Of a stretch of 64,000 nt of DNA, positions 48,622 through 50,524 are shown in pieces. Numbering within the stretch: position 1 is the stretch's first letter; each line of letters opens with the position of its first letter. Below the pieces are notes generated by a model that searched no databases, was not told the DNA's origin, and saw nothing but the letters and a program-made list of their open reading frames with translations. Position numbers and translations under genes: made by a program. Source of the DNA: Escherichia coli (GTDB lineage: Bacteria; Pseudomonadota; Gammaproteobacteria; Enterobacterales; Enterobacteriaceae); NCBI RefSeq assembly GCF_046105845.1, contig NZ_CP151004.1; one strand, 5' to 3'.

Positions 48622-48966
48622 ATGTATTTACGACCAGACGAGGTGGCGCGCGTACTTGAAAAAGTCGGTTTTACTGTCGATGTGGTAACCCAGAAAGCTT
48701 ATGGTTACCGCCGTGGGGAAAATTATGTCTATGTTAATCGCGAAGCGCGAATGGGACGTACCGCCCTGGTGATTCATCCAACATTAAAAGAACGTAGTTC
48801 AACACTGGCTGAACCCGCTTCCGATATTAAAACTTGCGATCATTACCAGCAATTTCCGCTCTATTTAGCGGGTGAACGTCATGAGCATTACGGTATCCCG
48901 CATGGCTTTAGTTCGCGTGTTGCGCTTGAACGTTATTTGAATGGTTTATTTGGCGAAGCCAGTTAA
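48622..48966 (+). CDS. ygaC: Uncharacterised protein YgaC
   Basis: 114 aa ORF with SD, conserved position. Confidence 0.8.
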
Positions 48967-49002
48967 AGACGCGACTGGCGATGCCAGTCGCGAAAAGAAG
49001 GG

Positions 49003-49452
49003 TCAGGCTTTTACCTGCTGGTAACGGCTGACTTTAAACAGTCGGCGGCAATAATCGAGGAAGTAGCCATAAACCGCCCCCATCAACATCGAAACAACGA
49101 TGTTTGAACTGACCGCCGCCATAATCTGATGCCAGTCTGCGCCCACCACTAACAAGATCGCCACATACACCGGTGACTGGAACGTCACATACGCCAGGAT
49201 ATCCGCCAGATTTTTTATCCAGCCCGACGGGCTAACTTTGCGTGCTGCGCGCATAAACAGATCGCGGTACATACCGTATGGCCATGCAATTAAGATGTTC
49301 ACCGGAATCGCTACCAATCTGGAATAAAAAGACTGTTCGAAGCTCATTCCGGAGAGGAAAACTTCAATACACATGTTCACGACAGAACAGTAAACAACCA
49401 TCGCGAACGTATCTGCAACTGCATGACGCAAGCGTGACTGCGGTGAGAACAT
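49003..49452 (-). CDS. alaE: L-alanine exporter
   Basis: Start at [10 protein letters not shown] (149 aa); ORF-track start 49563 judged an extension. Confidence 0.85.
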
Positions 49453-50119
49453 GCTAATGCTCCTTAATAAAAGCGTAATGGGATGTGAATGGAGATGAAA
49501 GCAGTGGATCTCATTGCCATCTGCATTTTCGCATAGCGTATATCGCTGGCTATGACTAATCAATTAGTGAAAAATTTTTATTTAAACTGTTTTTGTAGAT
49601 AAAATATTCCGTAACGGCGCGTTTTTTGTACATTGTGGATTTTTACATGCCGATATGGTTTATTTTCAATTGAATCAATTAGATATGATCCTGCCTTTAA
49701 TTACACTAATGAAAGTTTGGGGGTGAGATAACGCTATAAGCGTAGAGAATTCGGTGTATGTCGTGACCGGGTCATTTTCAGCATTTTTTATGCCAGAAAA
49801 TGTACATTGACAGCAGAAAGCACCAGTGAGGGGTGTTTCCATTTATTCGGTTAAATTGCATTTTTATTCATTTTTGTTTTGTCAGGCTTGCGGAATTAGC
49901 GAGCAGAGAGCGCCGCTCTGCTCACAAATAACCTAAATTACTCATCAAAATGGCTAATATATAATCTTGAAATTATTCTGAGAGTTTCAGAAAATAACAG
50001 CTGAAATAATCTCGCGCAGGACTGTAAATAGATTAAATTTTGTGGAAATATAATAAGTGATCGCTTACACTACGCGACGAAATACTTTTTTGTTTTGGCG
50101 TTAAAAGGTTTTCTTTATT

Positions 50120-50524
50120 ATGTCCGTAATGTTACAAAGTTTAAATAACATTCGCACCCTCCGTGCGATGGCTCGCGAATTCTCCATTGACGTTCTTGAA
50201 GAAATGCTCGAAAAATTCAGGGTTGTCACTAAAGAAAGACGTGAAGAAGAAGAACAGCAGCAGCGTGAACTGGCAGAGCGCCAGGAAAAAATTAGTACCT
50301 GGCTGGAGCTGATGAAAGCTGACGGAATTAACCCGGAAGAGTTATTGGGTAATAGCTCTGCTGCTGCACCACGCGCTGGTAAAAAACGCCAGCCGCGTCC
50401 GGCGAAATATAAATTCACCGATGTTAACGGTGAAACTAAAACCTGGACCGGTCAGGGCCGTACACCGAAGCCAATCGCTCAGGCGCTGGCAGAAGGTAAA
50501 TCTCTCGACGATTTCCTGATCTAA
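50120..50524 (+). CDS. stpA: H-NS paralogue StpA
   Basis: 134 aa [21 protein letters not shown]...; preceded by about 560 bp of AT-rich DNA. Confidence 0.95.

Follow-up and report, generated by a model that had tools for sequence, protein, structure and literature searches.

An AT-rich interval of Escherichia coli that very likely serves alaE and stpA, two divergent genes, as a common control region

The DNA analysed here (hereafter the window, 64,000 nt in length) is part of an Escherichia coli chromosome and is oriented in reverse compared with K-12. According to the listing of open reading frames (ORFs) and RefSeq, the local gene order is nrdH, ygaM, ygaC, alaE, stpA, ygaP and ygaV. The plus-strand gene ygaC (48622-48966) is followed by alaE (49003-49452, minus strand), which encodes the L-alanine exporter and to which RefSeq assigns 149 aa in K-12 as well as in the closest strain, and by stpA (50120-50524, plus strand), which encodes an H-NS paralogue; ygaM is located on the minus strand, as are ygaP and ygaV beyond stpA. 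The non-coding interval between alaE and stpA extends over 667 bp (49453-50119) and has a GC content of 35.2%, compared with 51.4% for the window. Only 1.7% of all 667-bp segments of the window are equally AT-rich, and all others of this kind are found at 59.6-63.3 kb. Of 5426 complete E. coli genomes, 5419 contain the interval at one chromosomal position only, and it is 99.8% identical to the sequence of strain WP4-S18-ESBL-07 and 94.9% identical to that of K-12. No feature is annotated inside the gap in the K-12 reference, nor does an annotated feature lie under any of the E. coli matches listed for the interval.

Two observations on the surroundings are noted here. The region at ~59600-63300, the sole other part of the window that is as AT-rich as the alaE-stpA gap (667-bp segments, GC ≤0.37), may likewise be of the H-NS type or may have been acquired horizontally. 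In WP4-S18-ESBL-07, the strain with the closest gap sequence, a PLP-dependent aminotransferase is annotated beside ygaM (locus L002, 1-1131), where nrdH is found in the window and in K-12; therefore, loci that are otherwise near-identical do not share the same genes to the left of ygaM.

The earlier note had described an AT-rich stretch without a convincing ORF in front of stpA, which is borne out, and had set its extent to 49564-50119 (~560 bp), which is too short. The left edge at 49564 reflects the end of a TTG-initiated ORF of 186 aa that over-extends alaE, and it is located beside the alaE -35 element. This longest alaE-containing ORF (49003-49563, minus strand) is 37 codons too long and spans the gene's own leader and core promoter. 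The true start of alaE is the ATG at 49452: the Shine-Dalgarno sequence AAGGAG and the ATG are kept in all 16 genera aligned, the sequence upstream of the ATG exhibits indels and no coding-like pattern in the same alignment, and the published transcription start, at window position 49530, falls inside the supposed extension. With the annotation, the conserved Shine-Dalgarno sequence and ATG, and the start site all placing the alaE start at 49452, the non-coding interval is therefore 49453-50119. Boundaries based on ORFs are thus misleading at alaE, and the corrected interval boundary is a useful by-product of this analysis.

For the transcripts of the region, we used the supplementary tables of K-12 SMRT-Cappable-seq, a method that captures full-length capped RNA (Yan 2018, PMC6131387), and placed the start sites on the window through a pairwise alignment with K-12. 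The K-12 alaE transcript extends from 2,799,086 to 2,799,651 and the stpA transcript from 2,798,537 to 2,798,047 (Yan 2018, PMC6131387), the latter end agreeing with a Term-seq 3′ end at 2,798,048 (Adams 2021). The alaE start corresponds to 49530 on the minus strand of the window, giving a leader of 78 nt (49453-49530), and the stpA start to 50079 on the plus strand, giving a leader of 41 nt (50079-50119; 42 nt in K-12). The two genes point outwards and each start site lies within the gap, as is expected of divergent promoters. These are the only two mRNA starts listed in the SMRT-Cappable-seq tables for K-12 2,798,500-2,799,099, and no start or end is given there at 2,798,600-2,798,999 or at 2,799,100-2,799,199. 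Likewise, the Term-seq tables consulted for K-12 contain no 3′ end at 2,798,500-2,799,099, a range that covers the whole central spacer of the gap.

The sole extra RNA across the gap in the SMRT-Cappable-seq tables is a rare read-through transcript that joins ygaC and stpA (window 48622-50524, plus strand; K-12 b2671/b2669), is antisense to alaE and spans the whole gap. For ygaC itself, these tables give a start site at K-12 2,800,694, which is antisense to ygaM and precedes ygaC by ~700 nt.

The length of the gap, together with the published induction of alaE by >300-fold after valine addition, could also be read as the sign that stpA or alaE has a long leader with a regulatory structure such as a riboswitch or attenuator. 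This reading is contradicted by the mapped starts, which leave no more than 41-42 nt and 78 nt for the leaders, and Rfam finds nothing of this kind; moreover, neither the stpA leader nor a hairpin in the central spacer (see below) folds better than shuffled sequence, conservation in the alaE leader is poor outside its Shine-Dalgarno sequence, and Lrp explains the induction. We consider a structured leader extremely unlikely.

The arrangement is also conserved. A scan for StpA with one genome per species yielded 41 StpA orthologue loci with 63-98% identity, and alaE is located upstream in divergent orientation in 39 of them, the remaining two ending before the position of alaE would be visible. 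In the 39 taxa the alaE-stpA gap is 476-778 bp long and has a GC content of 31-40%. When all gaps were aligned, conservation was found at the two ends only: on the alaE side from the start codon to ~49686 (~235 bp), and on the stpA side over the final ~80 bp when genera are compared, or ~185 bp among E. coli sequences. The conserved blocks are uniformly conserved and lack a 3-nt period. The same partition is visible in the comparison with K-12, with 1 difference in 131 positions in the alaE-proximal segment (49453-49583), 32 in 351 (9.1%) in the central segment (49584-49934) and 0 in 185 in the stpA-proximal segment (49935-50119), that is, 1 difference in 316 bp for the two promoter-proximal ends together.

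On the alaE side, a hexamer pair consisting of TTGATT (-35, 49563-49558) and TACGCT (-10, 49540-49535) with a 17-bp spacer is located on the minus strand (49535-49563), directly upstream of the leader that carries the Shine-Dalgarno sequence at 49465-49460. All of the 41 orthologous sequences contain the pattern TTGnnn-17-TAnnCT, without a single deviation from the 17-bp spacing, which suggests that TTGATT-17-TACGCT constitutes the core promoter of alaE, presumably a weak one of the sigma70 type; the fact that the -10 hexamer ends just 5 nt upstream of the mapped start counts against this assignment. Further upstream, the alaE side contains a putative activating region (49574-49612, minus strand) composed of a AAATAAAAAT tract (49583-49574), which is invariant in the cross-genus comparison, and a motif centred near -74 that is near-invariant across genera and reads CGGAATATTTTATCTACAAAA here and CAGAGTATTTTATCGACAAAA in most other genera. 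This motif agrees weakly with the Lrp consensus, in 11-12 of 15 positions, and includes a sequence similar to the high-affinity H-NS motif (TCGATAAATT), namely TAGATAAAAT here and TCGATAAAAT in other genera. The H-NS-like site matches this motif in 9 of 10 positions in the other genera and in 8 of 10 in the window (49596-49605, one match in the interval); such matches are common, with 87 in the window against ~67 expected. A scan with the Lrp consensus returned 105 matches in the window against ~77 expected by chance; both the Lrp and the H-NS consensus are too degenerate for such scans to be informative. Since both consensus scans barely exceed chance in the window, we infer, rather than read directly, that Lrp and H-NS would bind at the -74 motif. 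Two more distal conserved blocks at 49642-49686 (minus strand), recognized in the cross-genus alignment (ATAAC..TTGATTTAAAA and ACAACGAAAAT in other genera), probably provide further contacts for Lrp or H-NS. The largest and best-conserved block of the whole interval (49533-49686) belongs to alaE and its control by Lrp, and not to stpA.

On the stpA side, the promoter and the sequence upstream of it (50023-50078, plus strand) are near-invariant within Escherichia. Here, the hexamers TGGAAA (-35, 50043-50048) and TACACT (-10, 50066-50071) are separated by a 17-bp spacer, and the mapped start at 50079 is located 8 nt downstream of the -10 hexamer. Among 15 genera, conservation on this side is highest at the TGG of the -35 element and, within the -10 element, at the first T, the A and the last T, and from these observations we infer that TGGAAA-17-TACACT is the stpA promoter. 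A perfect TATAAT at 50049-50054 was rejected as the -10 element because the mapped start and the cross-genus invariants point elsewhere; it lies in the spacer of the favoured pair. The stpA leader contains a homologue of the SdsR pairing site at 50098-50107: in Salmonella, the stpA leader is protected by the sRNA SdsR at positions -22 to -13 (Frohlich 2016), and E. coli shares the site, GCGTTAAAAG, with Salmonella without any difference.

A stpA::gfp fusion published for Salmonella has its start at -83 (2330-2506 in the Salmonella loci L014 and L016; position 50037 in the window), upstream of the conserved -35/-10 pair with which the K-12 start at -42 agrees. With a reporter starting upstream of the proposed promoter, a second stpA promoter may therefore exist, or the design of the construct may explain the -83 start. 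A separate observation concerns E. coli QL57EC (locus L083, 1924-3342), in which an IS1X2 insertion and an adjacent deletion removed the N-terminus of alaE and the alaE-proximal half of the gap, leaving the stpA-proximal 342 bp and stpA intact and hence creating a natural knockout of the alaE promoter.

The two conserved ends are separated by a fast-evolving AT-rich spacer (49687-50022) that is assigned to no strand. This central part of ~350 bp is unalignable between genera; its length varies between 141 and 443 bp in other genera, where its median GC content is 0.37 and that of 5 kb of flanking sequence 0.52. Among E. coli strains, the central segment defined above is at least 95% identical to this strain in just 429 of 5418 complete genomes, with 4983 at 90-95%, compared with at least 99% identity in 4925 of the 5418 for the stpA-proximal segment; for the alaE-proximal segment, 2541 genomes are at least 99% identical and 2874 are 95-99% identical. 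Among nine diverse E. coli strains, we counted 55 segregating sites in the central segment (pi 6.6%), a single one in the stpA-proximal 185 bp and none in 50023-50119. Pairwise differences in the centre are graded from 0 to 9.4% and do not form two discrete classes. The 4-fold-degenerate sites of eight neighbouring genes differ from K-12 at 6.6% when pooled, with stpA (0) and ygaC (13.8%) as the extremes; compared with the 9.1% of the centre, this indicates that the spacer evolves at approximately the neutral rate. We had considered an excess of central divergence as an anomaly and dismissed it, as the divergence is near the neutral level reached by 4-fold sites, up to the value in ygaC, and the strain differences are graded. 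Judged by these comparisons, this strain carries a minority allele of an unconstrained central spacer.

The spacer appears to be constrained in its AT-richness and not in its sequence. Most likely, it acts as a non-specific platform on which filaments of H-NS/StpA and oligomers of Lrp would nucleate and spread, and a constraint on composition instead of sequence fits the idea that H-NS and Lrp platforms need AT-richness and not specific motifs. Intergenic DNA is generally AT-rich anyway, and the AT-richness of the spacer is thus weak evidence for this role.

A few islands within the spacer are invariant in Escherichia and count against the favoured reading, for example GCGTAGAGAATT (49740-49751), TTCAGCAT (49777-49784) and AAATGGCTAATATATAAT (49948-49965). 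The spacer or these islands might hold an extra promoter that is silenced by H-NS and gives rise to a condition-specific transcript, either an Ssr49-like sRNA or a distal isoform of the stpA mRNA. If true, such a promoter could also explain the -83 start of the Salmonella reporter; we regard it as very unlikely.

The earlier note had further allowed for an unannotated small RNA or small protein in the gap. The former has a specific precedent, since Wang 2016 predicted a 285-nt RNA, Ssr49, in the gap between stpA and SF2698 of Shigella flexneri 2a 301, that is, in the same gap and on the same strand as stpA. An independent stpA-sense sRNA in the central spacer might extend from TTTACA-17-TTCAAT (49643-49671) to a hairpin at 49901-49923; TTTACA-17-TTTAAT is listed as a promoter-like sequence in the gap (Shimada 2014), and the distance from the hexamer pair to the hairpin is ~285 nt, which would correspond to Ssr49. 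However, Ssr49 is a purely computational prediction that is absent from those marked as validated by RT-PCR (Wang 2016), and the K-12 Term-seq and SMRT-Cappable-seq tables give neither a central start nor a central 3′ end in its support. Both the TTTACA and the hairpin are lost in the cryptic Escherichia clades and in E. albertii, and the best hit of a permissive Rfam scan has an E-value of 0.3, far below the gathering score. Taken together, an sRNA of this kind is extremely unlikely.

The hairpin is a GC-rich structure with an 8-bp stem (GAGCAGAG-AGCGCCG-CTCTGCTC) without assigned strand. Its fold z-scores are -1.05 and -1.99, the plus strand being no better than shuffled sequence, and it is already decayed in Escherichia sp. 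MOD1. No run of T follows it on either strand and it was not called as a terminator, the terminator scan of the interval having returned one weak site, no more than expected by chance. We rejected it as a terminator for want of a U-tract, and as a member of a repeat family in view of its single copy per genome; it is probably incidental.

Candidates for a small protein do exist in this strain, namely ORFs of 23 aa (49655-49726, plus strand), 36 aa (49826-49936, plus strand), 25 aa (49556-49633, minus strand) and 20 aa (49464-49526, minus strand). The last of these belongs to the alaE leader and stops shortly ahead of the Shine-Dalgarno sequence of alaE; K-12, Escherichia sp. MOD1 and E. albertii all have it in intact form. 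However, none of the ORFs of at least 12 aa is intact in all seven Escherichia sequences, each being broken in at least one of the six others, and those of 23, 25 and 36 aa contain stops in K-12. As read from the sequence, the candidates lack a Shine-Dalgarno sequence at proper spacing, and the uniform conservation of the blocks, without a 3-nt period, and the empty K-12 annotation of the gap likewise speak against a coding function, so that a small protein is hardly credible. With no annotation, Rfam match, mapped central transcript end or conserved ORF, a hidden gene for a small RNA or small protein in the gap is not supported.

We return to the reading of the interval as a control region of two promoters, for which the action of Lrp, H-NS and SdsR is taken from the literature. 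Strong Lrp ChIP-seq peaks, in the form of a double peak, were reported at the stpA-alaE locus, and Lrp activates alaE in the presence of leucine, with a PalaE-lacZ response also described (Ziegler and Freddolino 2023). In the same study, full activation of stpA by Lrp required a second Lrp site inside ygaP, >1 kb away, the deletion of which lowered the activation >5-fold; atomic force microscopy (AFM) revealed leucine-sensitive bridging of stpA-alaE DNA by Lrp, and double peaks and bridging were described as a general pattern of Lrp (Ziegler and Freddolino 2023). An H-NS site in the stpA/alaE spacer is listed from genomic SELEX (Shimada 2014), and stpA is silenced by H-NS and is Lrp-dependent in minimal medium (summarized in Fitzgerald 2015). 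The AT content expected of a region of the H-NS/StpA type is found here, in the lowest 1.7% of segments as given above, and holds in the other genera. The earlier note's proposal of an H-NS/StpA-type regulatory region agrees with the published work (Shimada 2014, Fitzgerald 2015), and it overlooked that the region is divergent and that its main conserved block belongs to alaE and Lrp.

We consider it very likely that alaE (minus strand) and stpA (plus strand), which are transcribed divergently, are controlled jointly from this interval. On the alaE side (~235 bp), transcription would be directed by TTGATT-17-TACGCT to the start at 49530 and its 78-nt leader, with the A/T tract and the putative Lrp- and H-NS-like sites preceding the promoter, and Lrp would act through this block to switch on alaE under an abundance of alanine or leucine. 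On the stpA side (~100-185 bp), TGGAAA-17-TACACT would direct transcription to the start at 50079 and the 41-nt leader with its SdsR pairing site. The spacer would serve as the platform from which H-NS/StpA and Lrp silence or bridge both promoters, including the published Lrp bridge to the second site inside ygaP. The region would then represent a textbook-style pair of promoters under the control of nucleoid proteins (Lrp, H-NS/StpA), of little importance beyond tidy annotation. A further by-product is the base-level definition of both core promoters, which agree with the published starts and with conservation in 41 sequences for alaE and 15 for stpA.

As a divergent control region, the alaE-stpA interval is ordinary and already known. 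It is the counterpart of the K-12 stpA-alaE (ygaW) region (Free & Dorman 1997 as cited in Fitzgerald 2015; Shimada 2014; Ziegler & Freddolino 2023), with the same locus and gene order and ~95% identity; the locus being the same and its promoter ends near-identical, what has been published on Lrp peaks, the H-NS site and the start sites can be transferred to this strain. It differs from K-12 in its central spacer, of which this strain has the divergent (9.1%) minority allele. The hexamers predicted by Shimada 2014 also differ from those backed by start-site mapping and conservation: neither TTTACA-17-TTTAAT for stpA (49643-49671) nor GTGATA-17-TCTAAT for alaE (near 49708-49680) is conserved within Escherichia, and being located ~150-400 bp from the mapped starts, both were rejected. 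A simple sigma70 scan of our own missed both real promoters and gave no excess over shuffled sequence. The region further resembles the ygaV/yqaE and ileY/ygaQ spacers, listed as 'HNS' in the table of Shimada 2014, in being AT-rich and divergent and in containing a SELEX H-NS site. Unlike in these two spacers, one of the genes controlled here encodes the H-NS paralogue itself, which makes the region a component of a loop of cross- or autoregulation.
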